In this document: positions 3,884 to 39,799 of the stretch, piece by piece | Numbering within the stretch: position 1 is the first letter of the stretch | How the letters are laid out: each line of letters starts with the position of its first letter | Assembly (NCBI GenBank): GCA_003135635.1 | Contig: PLCJ01000002.1 | Location: 44,898 to 108,897, forward strand | Origin: Candidatus Adlerbacteria bacterium | GTDB lineage: Bacteria > Patescibacteriota > Minisyncoccia > Phycocordibacterales > SBAW01 | Direction: 5' to 3' | DNA length: 64,000 nt | Notes under the pieces: model-generated | Told to the model about the DNA's origin: nothing | The model's input: the letters and a program-made list of their open reading frames with translations, nothing else | Database searches by the model: none | Program-made: the position numbers and the translations under genes

Positions 3884-3886
3884 CAA

Positions 3887-4190
3887 AAGTGCGTTGGGTA
3901 GCAGCTCCACTCTTATAGGAGTGGAGAGGAAAGTCCGAACACTTACCTTGGCGTAAGCCAAGGACAGGTAGCAGGTAACGCCTGTCATGCGCTTCTAGCA
4001 GGCGCAAGAGGTGCGAACAGAGACGAGTCTTCGCTTCGGCGAAGGGTGAAACGGCTAAATCCTTACTTAAGTGCAAGGCCGTGCCCCGCAAGGGGAGTGC
4101 CGCTTGAGCTTTACGGCGACGTGAGGCCCAGATAAATTGCTATCGGATCCGCTTTGCGGATAGAACAGAATTCGGCTTATAAACGCACAT
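3887..4190 (+). ncRNA. rnpB: RNase P RNA (bacterial type A, minimal)
   Basis: P4 halves AGGAAAGTCCGAAC and ACAGAATTCGGCTTA. Conserved GGTAACGCCTG and AAGGGTGAAA elements. P1 pairs GTGCGTT (3889-3895) with AACGCAC (4182-4188). P3 hairpin CTCCACTC/GAGTGGAG. Confidence 0.85.
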
Positions 4191-4206
4191 GCTAGATCAT
4201 GTAAAT

Positions 4207-32804: not shown

Positions 32805-34112
32805 ATGAAGCTCTCCACTTTCCAATTTGCAGTTTTGGCTTTCTTTATTCTTTTTACTATTGCCGGTGTGGTTGCCTTCGCTGTTTTTGGAAGGGGCGCT
32901 AACAATACGAGTGTAGGTCCGGTGACCATCTGGGGTACCGTCGATGGACAAACCATGGACACGCTTATTACAACGCTCAGTTCACAAAATAAAATATTTC
33001 AAAACGTTACCTACGTGCAACTAGATCCAACTACGTATAGCGCAACACTCATTAATGCACTTGCCAGTGGGAACAGCCCTGATCTTTTTTTAGTAACTCA
33101 GGATACTGTGTCGAGCTTCGCAAATAAACTTTCTCCCATTCCTTATAATGCAGTCTCTCAAGCATCATATCTCTCCTCATTTATCGATGAAGGACAGCTC
33201 TTTTTGACACCGCAAGGATCTTTGGCGCTTCCTTTTATGATCGATCCCTTAGTCATGTATTGGAATCGAGATCTCTTTGCTTCTGCGGGCATAGCACAGC
33301 CTCCTTCCCATTGGAGCGACTTTCTTTCCCTGACGCCTAAAATCACTTCAATTGATGCACAATCAAACGTTGCGCGCAGTGCGGTTGCGCTTGGTGAGTG
33401 GCAAAACATTACTGATGCAAAAATGATTCTCTCGGCGCTTTTTATGCAGGCGGGAGATCCGATAGTCACCCGGGCGCAAAATGGCGCACTACAGTCAGTA
33501 TTTGGCGCAACACCAAGTGGAGCGGTGTCTAATCCAGCAGCGTCCGTACTTCTTTTTTATACCGAATTTGCAAATCCCTCAAAGACCACCTATTCATGGA
33601 ATCGTTCTCTTCCGCAATCGCGCAATGATTTTGCAGCGGGGAATCTGGCGGTGTACTTTGGACTTGCAAGTGACGATCCGGTATTAACCCAAAGCAATCC
33701 TAATTTGAGTTTTGGGGTTGCAGAGCTTCCTCAAATTCAAAATAATCCCACGCAGCTGACCTTTGGAGAATTAACTGGTATTGCCATTTCACGCATTGCA
33801 GGAAATCCGCAAGGGGCGCTTGCTGTTGCAGAGGCGCTTTCTGCTCCAGCCGCACAGCAACAACTCGCTGCGGAAACTAATTTACCGTCTGTACGACGCA
33901 GTCCTCTCACCGATACTTCAGGAAATGCGACAGAAACTGTTTTTGCACAATCAGCACTTATCGCACACGGTTGGCTCGATCCCGACCCAGCATCTACGGA
34001 CCTACTCTTTCAAGGCATGATAGAATCGATATTAAGCGGCAATCAAGAGCCTGCGGGGGCTGCGAGTGCTGCTTCGCAACAAATGGCTCAGTTGGTGAAT
34101 CCACAACAATGA
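32805..34112 (+). CDS. membrane-anchored extracellular solute-binding protein (SBP_bac_1-like), orphan
   Basis: N-terminal TM anchor and a periplasmic-binding-protein fold pattern. No ABC permease or ATPase genes adjacent. Confidence 0.55.
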   Translation: MKLSTFQFAVLAFFILFTIAGVVAFAVFGRGANNTSVGPVTIWGTVDGQTMDTLITTLSSQNKIFQNVTYVQLDPTTYSATLINALASGNSPDLFLVTQDTVSSFANKLSPIPYNAVSQASYLSSFIDEGQLFLTPQGSLALPFMIDPLVMYWNRDLFASAGIAQPPSHWSDFLSLTPKITSIDAQSNVARSAVALGEWQNITDAKMILSALFMQAGDPIVTRAQNGALQSVFGATPSGAVSNPAASVLLFYTEFANPSKTTYSWNRSLPQSRNDFAAGNLAVYFGLASDDPVLTQSNPNLSFGVAELPQIQNNPTQLTFGELTGIAISRIAGNPQGALAVAEALSAPAAQQQLAAETNLPSVRRSPLTDTSGNATETVFAQSALIAHGWLDPDPASTDLLFQGMIESILSGNQEPAGAASAASQQMAQLVNPQQ

Positions 34113-34513
34113 AAGGATTTTTAAGAATATTTTTCACATCTGCGTTTCTTTTTCTACTCCCTTTTGTTTGTTGGGGACAAAGTGGGGGTTCAAGCGCATC
34201 TCCAATAAATGTCACTCTCCAAAATCCACTAAGCCAAACCACATTTTGTCAGCTCTTTAAACAAATATTAGATGTTGCTCTCGCTCTTGGCACACCGGTC
34301 ATTATTTTTTTTATTGTGCTTGCTGGTTTTAAGTTTGTATGGGCTCGGGGTAATGCAGAAAAACTTACAGAAGCACGAGACAATCTTCGCAATACTATTC
34401 TTGGGATAGTTCTATTTCTGGGGGCATGGGCCCTCACTATGGTGGTGGCGGGAACTATCAATACTCTCAATAGCGCAGGAGGTGGTGGGAGTCCTTTAAT
34501 CGCTTCCTGTTAA
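34109..34513 (+). CDS. pilin-like small protein P1 (signal peptide plus two hydrophobic helices; VirB2/TrbC-like architecture)
   Basis: Start at the internal ATG (MKGFLRIFF) of ORF 33971..34513. Signal peptide, then a helix / charged loop (KLTEARDNLRN) / helix arrangement paralogous to the next three genes. Confidence 0.55.
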   Translation: MKGFLRIFFTSAFLFLLPFVCWGQSGGSSASPINVTLQNPLSQTTFCQLFKQILDVALALGTPVIIFFIVLAGFKFVWARGNAEKLTEARDNLRNTILGIVLFLGAWALTMVVAGTINTLNSAGGGGSPLIASC

Positions 34514-34523
34514 AAACAATCCT

Positions 34524-34763
34524 ATGACACTTGTGAGCCTCGTCTCATATCTTATTGGTCTCATTCAACTCGTAATTCCTGTGCTGACAGGTGCTGCTGT
34601 TGTTCTTTTTATGTTTGGAGTATTCCAATATGTCTATGCAGTCGCCCAAGGGAGTAAGGAGGCGTCAAAAGAGATGATGTGGTGGGGCATGATAGCGCTT
34701 TTTGTCATTTTTTCTTTCTGGGGAATACTCGCCCTTCTTCAGAGGTCACTAAATCTTCCTTAA
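34524..34763 (+). CDS. pilin-like small two-TM protein P2 (paralog)
   Basis: Shares the motif LIQLVIPVL...FGVFQYVYA...GSKEASK...GMIALFVIFSFWGILALL with P1, P3 and P4. Confidence 0.55.
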   Translation: MTLVSLVSYLIGLIQLVIPVLTGAAVVLFMFGVFQYVYAVAQGSKEASKEMMWWGMIALFVIFSFWGILALLQRSLNLP

Positions 34764-34869
34764 TTCCTCTTAAAAAACATTATTTCTAGACATTGGGACT
34801 ATCCACACGGCCCCATTGTTTATAGGCGTCCGTTTGCTACAGTGGGCGTATAACCAAATAAAATTTTTT

Positions 34870-35199
34870 ATGCAATGTTATAGTCAATTCGCGTGGCTTT
34901 GTCAGCTTGTTTCATCTATAGGCTACATCATTAATCTTCTCATTCCCATTATAATCGCCCTGACGGTACTTATATTCTTTTGGGGACTTTTCAAGTATGT
35001 ACTGGGCGGGGGAGATAAGGAAAAAAGTGACGGAAAGGGTATTCTCATTGCGGGCATTATTGCGCTTTTTGTCGAGGTTTCTATCTGGGGGATCATACAT
35101 TTGCTTGCAACCACTGTAGGTATTCCACAAGCTTCTACCGGCGTTGCTCCGTCCGTACAATCGACGACCTCGGCGGTTCCCGGTTCCTTAAACTACTAA
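34870..35199 (+). CDS. pilin-like small two-TM protein P3 (paralog)
   Basis: IINLLIPIIIAL...FWGLFKYVLGGGDKEKSDGKGILIAGIIALFVEVSIWGIIHLL. Start taken at the internal ATG of ORF 34816..35199. Confidence 0.5.
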   Translation: MQCYSQFAWLCQLVSSIGYIINLLIPIIIALTVLIFFWGLFKYVLGGGDKEKSDGKGILIAGIIALFVEVSIWGIIHLLATTVGIPQASTGVAPSVQSTTSAVPGSLNY

Positions 35200-35348
35200 C
35201 CGCATCAACATAAATAGTGTTTATCAAACACCATTTGTATAAGTTATATCCAGCCAGACCTAGTAGAGGGTCCAGAACCGAATCCTCTAATAATATCCAT
35301 GTCTATTTATCTATCCTTGTGATTACAGCCATAGGCTGATTCTTTCTT

Positions 35349-35651
35349 ATGACTTCGGTCGATGCATTTGTTGCTACTATTAACAGCACTATCATTAATC
35401 CTCTCCTCGCACTTCTTTTTGCGGTAGGAGTTTTAGTTTTTATTTACGGCGTAGTTGAATTTTTGCTTAGTATCAATCAGGGAGATAATACCAAAAAAGA
35501 ACAAGGTAAGCAGCACATGTGGCAAGGTCTCCTCGGCATGCTCATTATGGTAAGCGCTCTGTCGATATTCAATCTCTTAGCGAATACTCTTTGCAATAAC
35601 AGTGGGTTATCCCATTGTAAAGCCCTTCCAATTCAGTCAAGTAAGACATAA
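35349..35651 (+). CDS. pilin-like small two-TM protein P4 (paralog)
   Basis: IINPLLALLFAVGVLVFIYGVVEFLL...NTKKEQGKQHMWQGLLGMLIMVSALSIFNLL. Confidence 0.5.
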   Translation: MTSVDAFVATINSTIINPLLALLFAVGVLVFIYGVVEFLLSINQGDNTKKEQGKQHMWQGLLGMLIMVSALSIFNLLANTLCNNSGLSHCKALPIQSSKT

Positions 35652-35692
35652 ATCTCAAGGTCCAACATTCATTATCTATCGAATAATTCTCT

Positions 35693-35774
35693 GTGGGCGA
35701 GGGGAGACTCGAACTCCCAAACCTTGCGGTACATGGTCCTAAGCCATGCGTGTCTACCAATTTCACCACTCGCC
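35693..35774 (-). tRNA. tRNA-Leu(TAG)
   Basis: Read on the reverse complement: acceptor GGGCGAG/CTCGCCC, anticodon loop CTTAGGA, long variable arm, discriminator A. Confidence 0.85.
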
Positions 35775-35840
35775 CTTCAAATTCATGATACACGAAAGTC
35801 GAAAATACTTTGAGAAAAGTGTATACGCATGGGAAATCTG

Positions 35841-35912
35841 AGTCCACGGCGGGAATCGAACCCGCGTATAAGGGTTTTGCAGACCCATGCCTTACCACTT
35901 GGCCACGTGGAC
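35841..35912 (-). tRNA. tRNA-Cys(GCA)
   Basis: Read on the reverse complement: acceptor GTCCACG/CGTGGAC, anticodon loop CTGCAAA, T-loop TTCGATT, discriminator U as expected for tRNA-Cys. Confidence 0.8.
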
Positions 35913-36002
35913 GCGAATTTACTCTAGCATGAGTAGTCTGTTAAGCGATACAATTTTCCCGTTTGCTCTATGGGGCAGATTGTCATGGTAGAAATATAAG
36001 AT

Positions 36003-36089
36003 GCCGGGATGGCGAAACTGGTAGACGCGCGACACTTAAAATGTCGTGAGCCCGTAGGGCGCATGTGGGTTCGATTCCCACTCCCGGCA
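36003..36089 (+). tRNA. tRNA-Leu(TAA)
   Basis: Acceptor GCCGGGA/TCCCGGC, anticodon loop CTTAAAA, long variable arm, T-loop TTCGATT. Confidence 0.85.
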
Positions 36090-36276
36090 CATAGGCAGAA
36101 AATATGCCAATTGGGTACATTTCTATGTCGAATCAAAAAATACGTTGCAAATGCAATGTATTTTTTGTATCCAATAATGTGCTTACTAGACATGGTTAAC
36201 GGTTGTGGATAGGTGCACACCTAATTTCCCAATAACATAATATACTAGAGTAGTTCGAACATACGTGACGGTGAAT

Positions 36277-36312
36277 GGAGAAACCCCTGCATCTCTGCAG
36301 GGGTCTCCTTTT
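36277..36312 (+). terminator. strong rho-independent terminator about 190 nt downstream of tRNA-Leu(TAA)
   Basis: 13-bp stem GGAGAAACCCCTGCA / TGCAGGGGTCTCC with loop TCTC, followed by TTTT. Confidence 0.7.
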
Positions 36313-36766
36313 GGGGAGTTGAGAACCGGATGCTTCGCTACAACCTCCTGCCATCCGATGACTAATCTTTTCTTGGGAGATAGGATGCGCATCGTTTGAT
36401 TTTCTGATGCCTCTTTTTCACGTCGGGTCACTGTACCTCCTTACGGTTGCCACCCACAGTATCTAGAACCAGTCTAGTTCTAGCGGCTCAGGGTAGACGA
36501 AAGCCATCCTCCTAGCATATGTAGCGAGTTAGCGGCTAATGTTGGCCTGTGACGGTGAAGTCTCAGGTTATTTATATGAAAGCACAAAACTTGTCAAATA
36601 CAAATATCTGTCCTGTGGAAAACCGCGAATGTGACACACTTTTAGGATGACTCATACGGAATTTCTCGCTATATTGTATTAATACTGTGCTCGTTAGATA
36701 ATCAGGCTGTCTTATCCACAAGTAGGGAATGAAAATCGGACGCAAAGATTCTGCAATAGAATCTAC

Positions 36767-37012
36767 CTATCTCCTACTTAGAGCTTGAGCCACGGCACGA
36801 ATATTATGATCCAGAATCGAAATCTGAGATTCGATAGATTTGAGCTTCTTTTCCAGTTTATCAAGCATCGCACCACTGTTATAGTACTCAGTCACTCCAA
36901 CAGGAACTTGACACGTAGCACACTGGATAAAGAGTAGCTTGTATCTAGAGTCTTCAGGTGACTGTTCAACCACCTTAAACCGTGTACCGCTGCAACTTCC
37001 ACACTTAGACAT
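36767..37012 (-). CDS. small zinc-ribbon protein with C-terminal coiled coil (hypothetical)
   Basis: 81 aa, CGSC...CATC pairs and a C-terminal heptad-like segment. The only substantial ORF in a 1.8-kb tract. Confidence 0.4.
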   Translation of the reverse strand: MSKCGSCSGTRFKVVEQSPEDSRYKLLFIQCATCQVPVGVTEYYNSGAMLDKLEKKLKSIESQISILDHNIRAVAQALSRR

Positions 37013-37040
37013 ATATTATTCCGTTATTTAATAATTGTTA

Positions 37041-37402
37041 GTTCCTTGAAATACTAGAGAAGGTTAGATTGACCTCAACGGCTAGCGTACGAAGTACACT
37101 TTGTCGTCGACGGTCACAACATAGTGGATGAGAATGCATCCTCCTATGTGTCCCCGTCGTTTTATCTTCAGCTTGTGAAGATCTTGGCGATCAATCCATG
37201 AAACTGATAGCGACCCTTTATACGTCAGTTTTCGCTTCATGTCCGTAACCTATTTCTTAATGCTTGTAATCTTTAGGAGTCGATCCTTCCTTTGCTCCCC
37301 CTCAAAGTTCAAGAAAGCTCTGAGGGGGAGAGGAAGAGATGACATAACCCTTTAGACAAAAGCAACGGCTCTCCGACTGTCTCCTCTAGTATTTCAAGGA
37401 AC
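37041..37402. repeat. long-range perfect 19-bp inverted repeat (GTTCCTTGAAATACTAGAG at 37041-37059 and its reverse complement at 37384-37402) enclosing 324 nt with internal hairpins
   Basis: Seen directly in the sequence. An internal hairpin CTTCCTTTGCTCCCCCTCAAAG / CTCTGAGGGGGAGAGGAAG lies at about 37287-37340. Confidence 0.6.
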
Positions 37403-37874
37403 CAAAAACCCACTCCTCAACTGATAAGCGTGTGCTTATCAGTCAGGGAATGGGTTCTTTTGAAACTTACTCTTGCTGCCTAATAATCAAACGTACCAGT
37501 TGAGGTTTCCATGCGGACATCCCACTAGGAACATAATGATTATATCGCCTGACCGTATAGGCACAAGCGGTAAATGTGAATAAAGCCAAGAGGATAGGAA
37601 TTCTATCCTCTCCGGGACACCTTCACCCCCATATTGCACTTCGTGAGTAATATACACTTACTGGATACGACTTGATGGTACAGGGCACGAATCAGAAAAG
37701 CCTTTCGTTCAAGCAGCCCTGTTGATATCCTCATCAGAAACCATCTTCTCAATTACTTCAATGTCTTTAATCAATTTCAGAAGCTGGGGATCATTATTGT
37801 GGTACCGGGTTCGAACGTCGTTGACGAGCCGGCACATTGTGAGAAGGATAATTGTATTGTAGCGTGATATTCAT

Positions 37875-37947
37875 CCGCCCATAGCTCAATTGGTAGAGCA
37901 GCTGCCTCTTAAGCAGTTGGTTGTAGGTTCGAGTCCTACTGGGCGGA
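37875..37947 (+). tRNA. tRNA-Lys(CTT)
   Basis: Acceptor CCGCCCA/TGGGCGG (C1-G72), D-arm GCTCAATTGGTAGAGC, anticodon loop CTCTTAA, T-loop TTCGAGT, discriminator A. Confidence 0.8.
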
Positions 37948-37951
37948 CTAG

Positions 37952-38275: not shown

Positions 38276-39799
38276 CTATTTTTGAACGATTTCATACGCA
38301 ATCAGATAATCTCCGGAGGCTGGTTCACCTCCAGTTTTTATCATAGCGCCGAACTCTTGTCCGTTTTCCACTTTTTTAACATCTGATTTCTGCATTTGAA
38401 GAGAAACAATCTCACCGCGACCAATCTCAAGATCACGTCGCAGAATTTTTACATTATTGCCTTGTGTGAGAGTACCCTCTTCCACTCTACCGCCGACTAC
38501 GCAGCGTCCCCGGACACTACTGAAAACTTTAACTAACCGTGCTGAAGCTCGTGTTTCTTCATATCGTGCTCGTGGGCGGCGTGTTTCGATCTCGGATGTC
38601 AACCATTCTGTTAATTTGTAAATGATATCAAAAACAGCGATAGTAACTCCGAGACGCTCAGCGATATCTTTTGCCTCCCGCTCTACCTTGACGTTAAAAC
38701 CAAGAATAATTCCAGGGGTTTGCCCTGCTCCTGCAAGTCGTACATCGCTTTCGGTAATGGATCCAACTCCTTGCCGTACGATACGTATCTCAAGTTGATT
38801 CTCCGTAGAAAGTTTTCCTATCTCATGTATGATTGCTTCCCCCGTGCCCGCAACATCGGTTTTTATGATGAAGGGCAAAATTACCGGTTTCCTCTCTTCC
38901 TCCGCGTCTTCGCCTTGGGATACTGGGTGTATAGGAGCGGAGCGTGATACTAGGGCTTCAGCAACTTCTTCTTCTGCTTGTTTTTTTGTTTCAAGGGTGC
39001 GCCACTTTTCGCCGACGGGAGGAAGAATAGAAAATCCAACCACACGCACGGGGCTTCCCGGAGGAGCTTCTTTGATTGGTATACCTAAAAAATTTTCCAT
39101 GATCCGCACCGGAGCATAAGAATTTTTTGCTACAACGAATTCACCGCTCCTGAGTGTTCCGTCTTGGACTATAAGAGTTGCGGTATTCCCGCGTCGGGGA
39201 TCGACGTGGGCTTCTATAACTATTCCTCTGCCGGGGAGTGTAGGATCAGCAGTAAGTCCCTCAAGTTCCGCGGCAAGCAATATCAAATCAAGAAGTTCTG
39301 AAACGCCTTCACCTGTTTTCCCAGATACCGCGACGTATGGGACTTCACCGCCCATGCCCTCAAGCAGTACACCGTGCTCAAGTAGTGACATTTTTGCGCG
39401 CTCTATATTCATGTTTGGTTTGTCAATTTTAGTGAGCGCAACAATATAAGGAATGTGCACATCCTCAATCAATTTGAGGGCTTCAAGCGTTTGCTGCTTC
39501 GCTCCCTCTTCAGCAGAAACGACTAATATGGCGACATCAGCTACCTCAAGCCCGCGCATACGCATGGCGCGAAATGCCTCATGCCCCGGTGTATCCAAAA
39601 AGGTTATGTGCCGAAGGCCGCTAGAAGTTTTGTGTTCGGCTTCGTAAGCCGAGAGATACTGTGTAATGCCGCCCGTTTCCGATGCTACGACGTTCGTTCG
39701 TCTAATATAGTCAAGCAGCGTTGATTTACCGTGGTCGATGTGACCTACAATGACGACAATGGGTGGCCGTTCGTTCGGCCTCGAGATAATTGGTTCCAT
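38276..39799 (-). CDS. infB: translation initiation factor IF-2 (short N-terminus)
   Basis: [20 protein letters not shown] and TKIDK GTPase motifs. IF-2 C-terminal domains. Confidence 0.9.
   Translation of the reverse strand: MEPIISRPNERPPIVVIVGHIDHGKSTLLDYIRRTNVVASETGGITQYLSAYEAEHKTSSGLRHITFLDTPGHEAFRAMRMRGLEVADVAILVVSAEEGAKQQTLEALKLIEDVHIPYIVALTKIDKPNMNIERAKMSLLEHGVLLEGMGGEVPYVAVSGKTGEGVSELLDLILLAAELEGLTADPTLPGRGIVIEAHVDPRRGNTATLIVQDGTLRSGEFVVAKNSYAPVRIMENFLGIPIKEAPPGSPVRVVGFSILPPVGEKWRTLETKKQAEEEVAEALVSRSAPIHPVSQGEDAEEERKPVILPFIIKTDVAGTGEAIIHEIGKLSTENQLEIRIVRQGVGSITESDVRLAGAGQTPGIILGFNVKVEREAKDIAERLGVTIAVFDIIYKLTEWLTSEIETRRPRARYEETRASARLVKVFSSVRGRCVVGGRVEEGTLTQGNNVKILRRDLEIGRGEIVSLQMQKSDVKKVENGQEFGAMIKTGGEPASGDYLIAYEIVQK

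Follow-up and report, generated by a model that had tools for sequence, protein, structure and literature searches.

A probable foreign-DNA insertion at the 3′ end of tRNA-Leu(UAA) in a Candidatus Adlerbacteria-like genome

Results

Insertion boundaries and empty site in relatives

The DNA studied here, referred to as the window, is a 64-kb stretch of a Candidatus Adlerbacteria-like genome of the Patescibacteria; among species representatives, the best match of its IF-2 was to an Adlerbacteria metagenome-assembled genome (MAG), 72% identical. Within the window, the genes of tRNA-Leu(UAA) and tRNA-Lys(CUU) are separated by a tract of 1,784 nt (36091-37874). Considering its comparison with related loci, this tract is very probably an insertion, and the account that we favour, with a probability of roughly 0.55, is that foreign DNA entered at the 3′ end of tRNA-Leu by recombination either of the att type or on very short homology. 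The features that delimit the insertion are listed below, where L005 is the locus of the closest relative found, an Adlerbacteria MAG.

36003-36090, + strand: tRNA-Leu(UAA), the integration target, whose 3′ end bears repeat copy 1 (ARAGORN; Rfam tRNA, 59.3 bits)
36084-36092, + strand: left copy of the 9-bp direct repeat CCGGCACAT, an attL-like core (both junctions overlap on the same 9 nt of L005)
36093-37828, no strand assigned: inserted DNA, 1,736 bp between the repeats, 1,745 bp with one repeat (blastn/tblastx, L005 alignment, composition)
37807-37837, + strand: right junction, attR-like, formed by GGGTTCGA, 14 unrelated nt and copy 2 of CCGGCACAT (repeat search, L005 alignment)
37838-37874, + strand: ancestral spacer between tRNA-Leu and tRNA-Lys, conserved with the empty site of L005 (L005 alignment)
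37875-37948, + strand: tRNA-Lys(CUU), formerly 39 nt 3′ of tRNA-Leu (ARAGORN, Rfam)

The related loci compared were 80 obtained via IF-2 from a genome collection and 80 obtained via RbfA from metagenomes. In L005, the gap from tRNA-Leu to tRNA-Lys is 39 nt, and the empty site reads ...CCCACTCCCGGCACAT|TGTGAGAG...tRNA-Lys or, at greater length, ...GGGTTCGATTCCCACTCCCGGCACAT|TGTGAGAGTGTTTATTATATTGTAG...tRNA-Lys. Window positions 35692-36092 align with L005 as far as CCGGCACAT, and positions 37829-37949 align with it from the same CCGGCACAT onward (91.7%), the left and right junctions overlapping on exactly the 9 repeated bases of L005, with the homology breaking at CCGGCACAT on both sides. When 1,745 bp are subtracted, the tract is reduced to the gap of L005 (1784 - 1745 = 39 nt). 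Among the related loci as a whole, 90 have the two tRNAs on the same strand; in 38 of these the gap is 80 nt or less, and the tract is found in none. The comparison of the insert with the related loci by blastn and tblastx gave zero similarity, other than to distant zinc-ribbon homologues fetched on purpose, and the search for closer relatives through RbfA in metagenomes gave a best match 74% identical, no closer than L005.

The empty site of L005, together with the compact gaps and the lack of a homologous tract, indicates a lineage-specific gain and not an ancestral region. A first-pass annotation of this DNA, made from the sequence by itself, had proposed to compare the tRNA-Leu/tRNA-Lys interval among relatives, a shared tract being the outcome contrary to its reading; what the relatives show is an empty site. 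The tract sequence was 100% identical in independent ENA and Logan assemblies, and a JGI contig was identical over the 907 bp of the tract that it covers, so the tract is not an assembly artefact.

Direct repeat and junctions

The repeat CCGGCACAT is found at 36084-36092 and 37829-37837. Its left copy covers the final 5 nt of the acceptor stem together with the discriminator A and 3 nt of trailer. The 3′ boundary of tRNA-Leu was called at 36089/90 by ARAGORN and Rfam, and the insert starts 3 nt past the discriminator; the tRNA is intact and scores normally. At the right junction, GGGTTCGA corresponds to the start of the T-stem/T-loop, and the next 14 unrelated nt make a small hairpin. The annotation mentioned above had claimed that this distal end (37807-37837) repeats the T-loop start and the 3′ end of tRNA-Leu, and it had asked for shuffled controls. 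The composite GGGTTCGA-N(5-20)-CCGGCACAT occurred exactly twice, at 36067-36092 and 37807-37837, and did not occur in 100 shuffles, which upholds the claim for the composite; the bare 9-mer, on the other hand, stayed within chance. Of the 15 tRNAs of the window, 5, this locus included, are followed no more than 2.5 kb downstream by a bare copy, 9-10 nt long, of their own 3′ end, and therefore the 9-mer alone is not significant. The significance of the repeat comes from the composite pattern and from the coincidence of the 9-mer with an insertion boundary that was set independently by a relative.

Another observation made at the ends of the insert is a pair of GTTCGAAC(A/G)T..GTGACG-like 18-mers (36253-36270 and 37809-37826), 78% alike and containing the palindrome GTTCGAAC, one of them about 160 nt inside the left end and the other at the right end. 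They could be arm-type sites of a recombinase, or they could be due to chance.

Variation of the tRNA-Leu/tRNA-Lys spacer

Across Paceibacteria, the tRNA-Leu(UAA)/tRNA-Lys(CUU) spacer is a recurrent recombination hotspot. Its length varies between 11 and 5,771 nt. Exact copies of 13-23 nt from the 3′ end of tRNA-Leu were seen within it in at least 9 loci, and copies of the 5′ end of tRNA-Lys in about 10; neither kind of copy was matched in length by any of 200 shuffles.

The spacers upstream of tRNA-Lys(ctt) were seen to contain 1-3 copies of the first 13-22 nt of tRNA-Lys, placed 30-400 nt 5′ of the gene, in loci L038, L044, L170 (TATCCGCTCGTAGCTCAGCTGG), L068/L083 (CCCTCATAACTCAGCTG), L136, L138, L156 and L045. 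Each copy then runs into non-tRNA sequence, mirroring the 3′-end copies that follow tRNA-Leu.

In other Adlerbacteria-like genomes, the same gap holds a conserved gene of about 290 aa with the motif ...WPEY...G.NP.G.R...W, sometimes adjoined by a methyltransferase. This gene is found in L012, L013 (as two tandem paralogues), L015, L016, L017 and L020, and also in several metagenome loci with gaps of about 900 nt (e.g., L106, L108-L111, L117 and L120), and it contains no Pfam domain. The tract of the window as a decayed copy of this gene was considered and rejected, with tblastn showing no similarity.

Reading frames and composition of the insert

The tract is the part of the window poorest in open reading frames (ORFs). 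The earlier description of a nearly ORF-free tract with just two ORFs of 60 aa or more agrees with the ORF listing, where the only ones lying fully within it are the same two of 81 aa, at 36767-37012(-), which encodes a zinc-ribbon protein, and at 36186-36431(-), which overlaps a terminator hairpin. Two larger ORFs, of 98 aa (35924-36220, - strand) and 67 aa (36009-36212, + strand), only enter the left edge of the tract over the tRNA-Leu gene. The maximum stop-free run in the tract was 84 codons; the same quantity, determined in every 1,784-nt window of the 64 kb, had a minimum of 82, a 5th percentile of 162 and a median of 345 codons. An alternative genetic code was rejected, as the recoding of TGA, TAG or TAA produced no long ORF in the tract, any single reassignment giving at most 147 codons. 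Also rejected was the reading of a 52-aa ORF through its upstream in-frame stop, the 87-aa product of which has a RelE/ParE-like look, with no Pfam match and no homologue. The remaining small ORFs of the insert had no support from Pfam, PHROG or homologues, and their codon scores were no better than that of the zinc-ribbon gene.

Concerning composition, the guanine plus cytosine (GC) content of the insert was 43.0% versus 47.3% (5th percentile), and its tetranucleotide distance lay at the 95.5th percentile. The codon score of the zinc-ribbon gene was -0.02 per codon versus +0.14 to +0.17 for small genes of the host, i.e. about 3 standard deviations (SD) lower. The GC content, the tetranucleotides, the codon use and the phage-type gene family are the reasons why the insert looks foreign, and its foreign origin can be considered probable.

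The zinc-ribbon gene

The gene carried by the insert is the following.

36767-37012, - strand: intact 81-aa gene for a C4 zinc ribbon plus a C-terminal coiled-coil helix (phrog_9414 match, alignment, AlphaFold2)

The protein matches phrog_9414 with an E value of 7.9e-9 over profile positions 5-71 of 71. The family comprises 434 cluster representatives at E<=1e-3 in an exhaustive HMMER search, nearly all of them 65-95 aa long. In a 45-sequence alignment of the family, the residues C3, C6, C30 and C33 were invariant and were accompanied by a C-terminal heptad helix; the AlphaFold2 model shows a three-stranded zinc ribbon and a 35-residue helix, with a predicted local distance difference test (pLDDT) score of 88. 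The fold search run with this model gave no significant solved structure, the best being the zinc ribbon of NrdR (E 0.26). The gene is intact and probably functional, and its product is likely a small oligomer that binds nucleic acid or protein. The first-pass annotation had supposed an element that lost its cargo, a point to be corrected in view of this gene of the phrog_9414 family.

The nearest named relatives of the 81-aa protein are phrog_9414, Lar (the restriction alleviation protein of the Rac prophage) and ECs_2282, all of them prophage proteins of small size (about 65-90 aa) with a C4 zinc ribbon. Homologues of the window protein match ECs_2282_CxxC (29/45) and Lar restriction alleviation (19/45) weakly, and members of the family reach Lar or ECs_2282 with E values down to 1e-6 (best for Lar, 1.4e-6). 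The window protein itself, on the other hand, did not match the models of Lar (TIGR03655) and ECs_2282 (NF047912) at E<=0.1, so that it lies outside both NCBIfam models, and it bears the 35-residue C-terminal coiled coil. The genomic contexts of the homologues are mixed, including an islet of hypothetical genes in Geobacter, an IS/TIR defence island and a housekeeping region, and no consistent partner was found in them. The family is a widespread one, and its small proteins occur in phages, mobile elements and islands.

Hairpins, terminator-like structures and a strongly folding module

Besides the zinc-ribbon gene, the insert contains several inverted repeats.

36134-36167, no strand assigned: AT-rich, near-perfect palindrome with 16-nt arms, 94% complementary, 44 nt past tRNA-Leu (repeat search, fold)
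36277-36312, + strand (that of tRNA-Leu): intrinsic-terminator-like hairpin plus T-tract, with a 9-pair stem at 36283-36304 and the tail CTCCTTTTGG (fold)
37035-37408, - strand: 374-nt module that a 28-nt inverted repeat closes and that contains several further hairpins, one of them at 37295-37330 (repeat search, folds)
37404-37459, no strand assigned: hairpin with 26-bp arms flanked by A/T runs, terminator-like on both strands (repeat search, folds)
37588-37612, - strand: terminator-like hairpin (terminator search)

The strong hairpins and the long-range inverted repeat noticed from the letters of the sequence were all found, at 36283-36304, 37404-37459 and 37035-62 / 37381-408. The last one, which closes the 374-nt module, has 28 nt, 19 of them exact, and CTCTAGTAT is present in both of its arms; this sequence occurs exactly 4 times in the 64 kb, 3 of them in the insert. 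In minus-strand order, the hairpin 37404-37459 is directly followed by the 374-nt domain, which ends 23 nt upstream of the zinc-ribbon ATG. The left arm of the module contains, on the minus strand, TTGAGG-16-TAGTAT, which reads as a sigma-70-like candidate and could plausibly be the promoter of the zinc-ribbon gene; TAGTAT boxes are located at about 37045 on the minus strand and about 37399 on the plus strand. A small RNA co-transcribed with tRNA-Leu up to the terminator at 36277-36312 is plausible, judging by the sequence.

The minus strand of 37030-37470 folded with a minimum free energy (MFE) of -187 kcal/mol, versus -114 +/- 5.8 in shuffles (z -12.6). The corresponding MFE of the plus strand was -166 kcal/mol (z -11.1), and folding as DNA gave z -9.8. 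With GC correction over all the 441-nt windows of the 64 kb, the region 37035-37460 was the strongest folding outlier (-5.2 SD on the minus strand), the next independent window being at about -2.1 SD and the RNase P region at -2.4; the tRNA clusters were likewise exceeded. Outside 37030-37470, the folding of most of the tract does not surpass that of shuffled sequence.

It is thus worth considering that the insert has as its functional core a structured RNA of the minus strand, not yet described, covering about 37035-37460 and possibly reaching about 37640, a reading compatible with the insertion. Such an RNA might serve the zinc-ribbon gene as a long regulatory leader, or it might act as a partner of the encoded protein, and the terminator-like hairpins could be parts of its fold. 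The z values of both strands and the rank of the region among the windows of the 64 kb favour it, as do the end of the closing helix 23 nt ahead of the ATG and the lack of homologues of the 52-aa ORF, which lies inside the module. However, much of the z-score comes from the 28-nt inverted repeat and from perfect palindromes, which fold equally as DNA. The module could also be made of duplicated promoter/operator copies or of recombination sites, and the candidate promoter inside the left arm would keep the module out of the messenger RNA. Besides, no homologous sequence was found in the related loci or in phage and plasmid collections, hence no covariation test applies. We regard this structured RNA as doubtful.

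As to known RNAs, the Rfam scan of the tract gave nothing at the gathering score nor at E<=10; only the two flanking tRNAs reached gathering, and the best non-tRNA match had 24 bits with a model that requires 75. The covariance models of tmRNA, SRP RNA, 6S, group I/II introns and OLE, all suggested beforehand as candidates, were thus negative even at E<=10, and GOLLD, ROOL, HEARO and RtT of Rfam 15 were likewise unmatched. So, the earlier alternative of a non-coding RNA (ncRNA) fails as far as known families are concerned, while the strongest folding outlier of the window, 37035-37460, could still harbour an undescribed structured RNA.

A tRNA-trailing, tRNA-like element in relatives

In many Paceibacteria relatives, a structured element of about 115-170 nt lies directly 3′ of tRNA genes; where it is tandemly repeated, as is sometimes the case, the period is 173-192 nt. 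Its 5′ part has a strand that complements the 3′ acceptor strand of the preceding tRNA, which gives an acceptor-like stem, and is followed by a conserved 9-bp hairpin, AAGCAAA-CUGC-UUUGCUU. Next, a GCGGAAUCGAAAG-like strand pairs with T-loop-3′/T-stem-3′ sequence in an extended T-like helix that encloses two hairpins, and the element terminates in 11-22 nt that exactly copy the 3′ end of the upstream tRNA. Examples are the following.

L025:8206-8533: two tandem copies after tRNA-Cys
L049:12046-12192: after tRNA-Leu-taa
L083:12611-12729: after tRNA-Lys
L029:430-565: after tRNA-Trp
L027:3724-3890, - strand: after tRNA-Ala

The covariance model of this element (R1), built from 8 examples and run over 1.5 Mb of related loci, gave 61 matches at E<=0.01. 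Among those at E<=1e-4, 45 of the 48 checked lie at most 700 nt downstream of a same-strand tRNA, which was Cys (10), Lys (8), Leu-taa (7), Leu-tag (7), Tyr (7), Trp (4), Ala (1) or Glu (1), and 21 of these 45 end in a copy of at least 11 nt of the 3′ end of that tRNA. In the covariation analysis, run on an alignment fitted to the model and thereby favouring its structure, 93% of cells were paired versus 68% in shuffles, with double changes in 16/17 pairs; the score was 0.62 versus 0.18, reached in none of 500 shuffles, and slid controls gave 0.05-0.11. The element had no Rfam match, even at E<=10, a 16-mer anchor gave chance-level matches only in IMG/VR, and a text search of the literature on tRNA-like elements or tRNA-linked RNA motifs in the Candidate Phyla Radiation (CPR)/Patescibacteria gave nothing relevant. 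To our knowledge, its closest analogue is the 178-bp repeats of E. coli tyrT, with RtT RNA.

The element and the insert are alike in lying directly 3′ of tRNA genes, tRNA-Leu(UAA) included, and in ending in a copy of the tRNA 3′ end. The tract was nevertheless rejected as a member: the window gave 0 matches at E<=10 with default filters and, with the filters off, the best score of the tract was 6.8 bits versus 24-108 for the members.

Other features of the window

Immediately upstream of the tRNA cluster (33971-35651) there is a run of 4-5 genes for small membrane proteins (79-180 aa) with T4SS_pilin-type matches; L005 has one further gene of this type between tRNA-Lys and rbfA. A class A RNase P RNA is located at 3886-4195 (about 310 nt, 111.7 bits versus a gathering score of 100), which suggests a reduced form. 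The IF-2 encoded at 38276-39799 (507 aa) is devoid of the long N-terminal region of typical bacterial IF-2, and this short form appears to be common to the relatives fetched, which aligned over essentially the full length.

Discussion

Proposed mechanism

In the ancestor, tRNA-Leu(UAA) and tRNA-Lys(CUU) would have been 39 nt apart, and about 1.74 kb of foreign DNA would have entered, in this lineage, at the exact 3′ end of tRNA-Leu. The mechanism may have been site-specific recombination of the att type, or recombination on very short homology, with the crossover within CCGGCACAT. The incoming DNA would have borne a partly tRNA-like arm, GGGTTCGA...CCGGCACAT, like the attP of tRNA-targeting elements, and because of this arm tRNA-Leu would have been left intact, with a degenerate copy of its 3′ end at the far junction. 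The old 37-nt spacer and tRNA-Lys would then have been pushed 1.75 kb away. The terminator-like hairpin at 36283-36304 plus its T-tract would stop the tRNA-Leu transcript about 220 nt past the tRNA, so that both tRNAs, probably once co-transcribed, would now be uncoupled, with terminator-like hairpins insulating them. The lack of a recombinase implies that the insert is either a deletion remnant or an element that was never autonomous, and its decay from a larger autonomous element is a tentative option, a little short of an even chance.

Several results weigh against this account. The six-frame scans of the tract gave no integrase, transposase or other domain with Pfam and no recombinase remnant with PHROG, where phrog_9414 was the only match. 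Among 20 mid-size ORFs elsewhere in the window there was no recombinase; they were mostly housekeeping, 3 of them being without a Pfam domain. The perfect identity of the repeat is just 9 bp, a length that would also fit a target-site duplication, the lone 9-mer being within chance. No related element was found with tblastn of the zinc-ribbon protein against phages, with blastn of the insert against phage and plasmid collections, in the related loci, or with two narrow probes in IMG/VR (the zinc-ribbon protein and the 19-mer core of the inverted repeat), so the pedigree as a mobile element is drawn from anatomy alone. The empty-site junction expected for this species is ...CACTCCCGGCACAT|TGTGAGAAGG..., and the circular junction expected for the excised insert is ...GTTGACGAGCCGGCACAT|AGGCAGAAAAT... 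The species-specific empty-site 24-mer had no match in JGI metagenomes and all four assemblies carry the insert, hence there is no evidence for recent mobility.

The first-pass annotation had read the tract as a decayed relic and had proposed a search for integrase pseudogene fragments in six frames. The part of that reading which placed an insertion at the tRNA-Leu 3′ end, bounded by a repeat of the tRNA end, agrees with the empty site, while the former integrase is left without any remnant after the negative Pfam and PHROG scans. On balance, recombination of the att type is preferred to transposition by a slight margin of belief.

Comparison with known elements

Rules on the sublocation of integration at tRNA 3′ ends are said to have been set out by Williams in 2002. 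The insert resembles tRNA-targeting integrative elements and islands of the tyrosine-integrase type (e.g., P4-like) in its site at a tRNA 3′ end with the tRNA kept intact, in the partial copy of the tRNA 3′ end at the distal junction together with an empty site in relatives, in its atypical composition and in its phage-type cargo gene. It differs from them in that it is just 1.7 kb long and has neither an integrase gene nor a remnant of one, in that its repeat is 9 bp perfect plus a degenerate T-loop match (collinear 8 nt), and in that no excised form or polymorphism was detected with the JGI 24-mer and the four assemblies. Four defining features are present, namely the site at the tRNA 3′ end, direct repeats derived from the tRNA, the empty site of the relatives and the atypical composition; the fifth, a recombinase, is missing, so we do not file the insert as an integrative element proper and call it an integrase-less, att-flanked remnant or a non-autonomous islet.

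Cis-mobilizable elements (CIMEs) are integrase-less, att-flanked elements of the families of streptococcal integrative and conjugative elements. The insert is like them in its att-like flanking repeats, the lack of its own recombinase and its small size; unlike the case of CIMEs, no cognate integrase-bearing element is known or was found for it, and its mobilisation is hypothetical. The distal repeats of E. coli tyrT, with RtT RNA (Rfam RF00391), are tandem repeats of about 178 bp without genes. There, too, the DNA that follows the tRNA ends in a copy of the 3′ end of the same tRNA, but the insert consists of one unit of 1.7 kb and carries a gene for a protein, and no RtT match was obtained at E<=10. 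Finally, the insert is not an insertion sequence (IS) or a miniature inverted-repeat transposable element (MITE), because terminal inverted repeats and a transposase are both lacking, the 9-bp direct repeat at its boundaries notwithstanding.

Alternative origins

An unlikely origin, somewhat less probable than the structured RNA discussed above, is that the insert was never autonomous, i.e. that it is an integrase-less CIME-like or satellite-like element made of an att site and small cargo, inserted by a recombinase that another part of the genome, or a phage infecting the same cell, encoded. It seems reasonable to invoke in its favour that no fragment of a recombinase remains in any frame, yet the zinc-ribbon gene is intact, that the ends are sharp and the tRNA-like arm is kept, and that numerous very short insertions, with tRNA ends duplicated, are seen in this spacer among relatives. 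On the other hand, neither a second copy of any part of the insert in the 64-kb window, nor a related element in the collections searched, nor a candidate recombinase among the mid-size ORFs checked came to light.

Still more speculative, and improbable, is that the insert is a working, integrase-less module that targets tRNA 3′ ends and is mobilised in trans, of a class undescribed in Patescibacteria, which would combine a hyper-stable minus-strand RNA of about 430 nt with the Lar-like zinc-ribbon/coiled-coil protein. If this were true, the RNA-protein payload might be, e.g., an anti-restriction or immunity device.

A decayed transposon or MITE-type insertion, with CCGGCACAT as a 9-bp target-site duplication and a T-loop resemblance due to chance, is very improbable. 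The repeat has indeed exactly 9 bp, a common duplication length, and the internal 374-bp segment with its 28-nt inverted repeats is MITE-like. However, the ends of the insert, AGGCAGAAAAT... and ...GTTGACGAG, are not inverted repeats, no transposase remnant is present in the tract, the right end is tRNA-like owing to the additional collinear match of GGGTTCGA (0 of 100 shuffles), and the inner inverted-repeat segment has neither a flanking duplication nor another copy in the window. Last, that the tract is an ancestral non-coding or ncRNA region deleted between the repeats in the relatives can hardly be believed, although a deletion between direct repeats would yield exactly this empty site: it would need many independent precise losses to leave 38 of 90 loci compact across Paceibacteria with no homologous remnant, and it does not agree with the atypical composition and codon use.

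Significance

Mobile DNA in Patescibacteria (CPR) is poorly charted, and the favoured account, a foreign insertion at the tRNA-Leu 3′ end, makes of this locus a cleanly delimited capture of foreign DNA at a tRNA 3′ end, with exact junctions and a reconstructed empty site. For annotators, it means that the tract should be taken neither for a large gene missed in annotation nor for a known ncRNA. The locus also flags a small, conserved zinc-ribbon family of at least 434 clusters. Only two features might raise it above the ordinary: the extremely stable folding of 37035-37460 and, in the relatives, the family of tRNA-like elements that trail tRNA genes.

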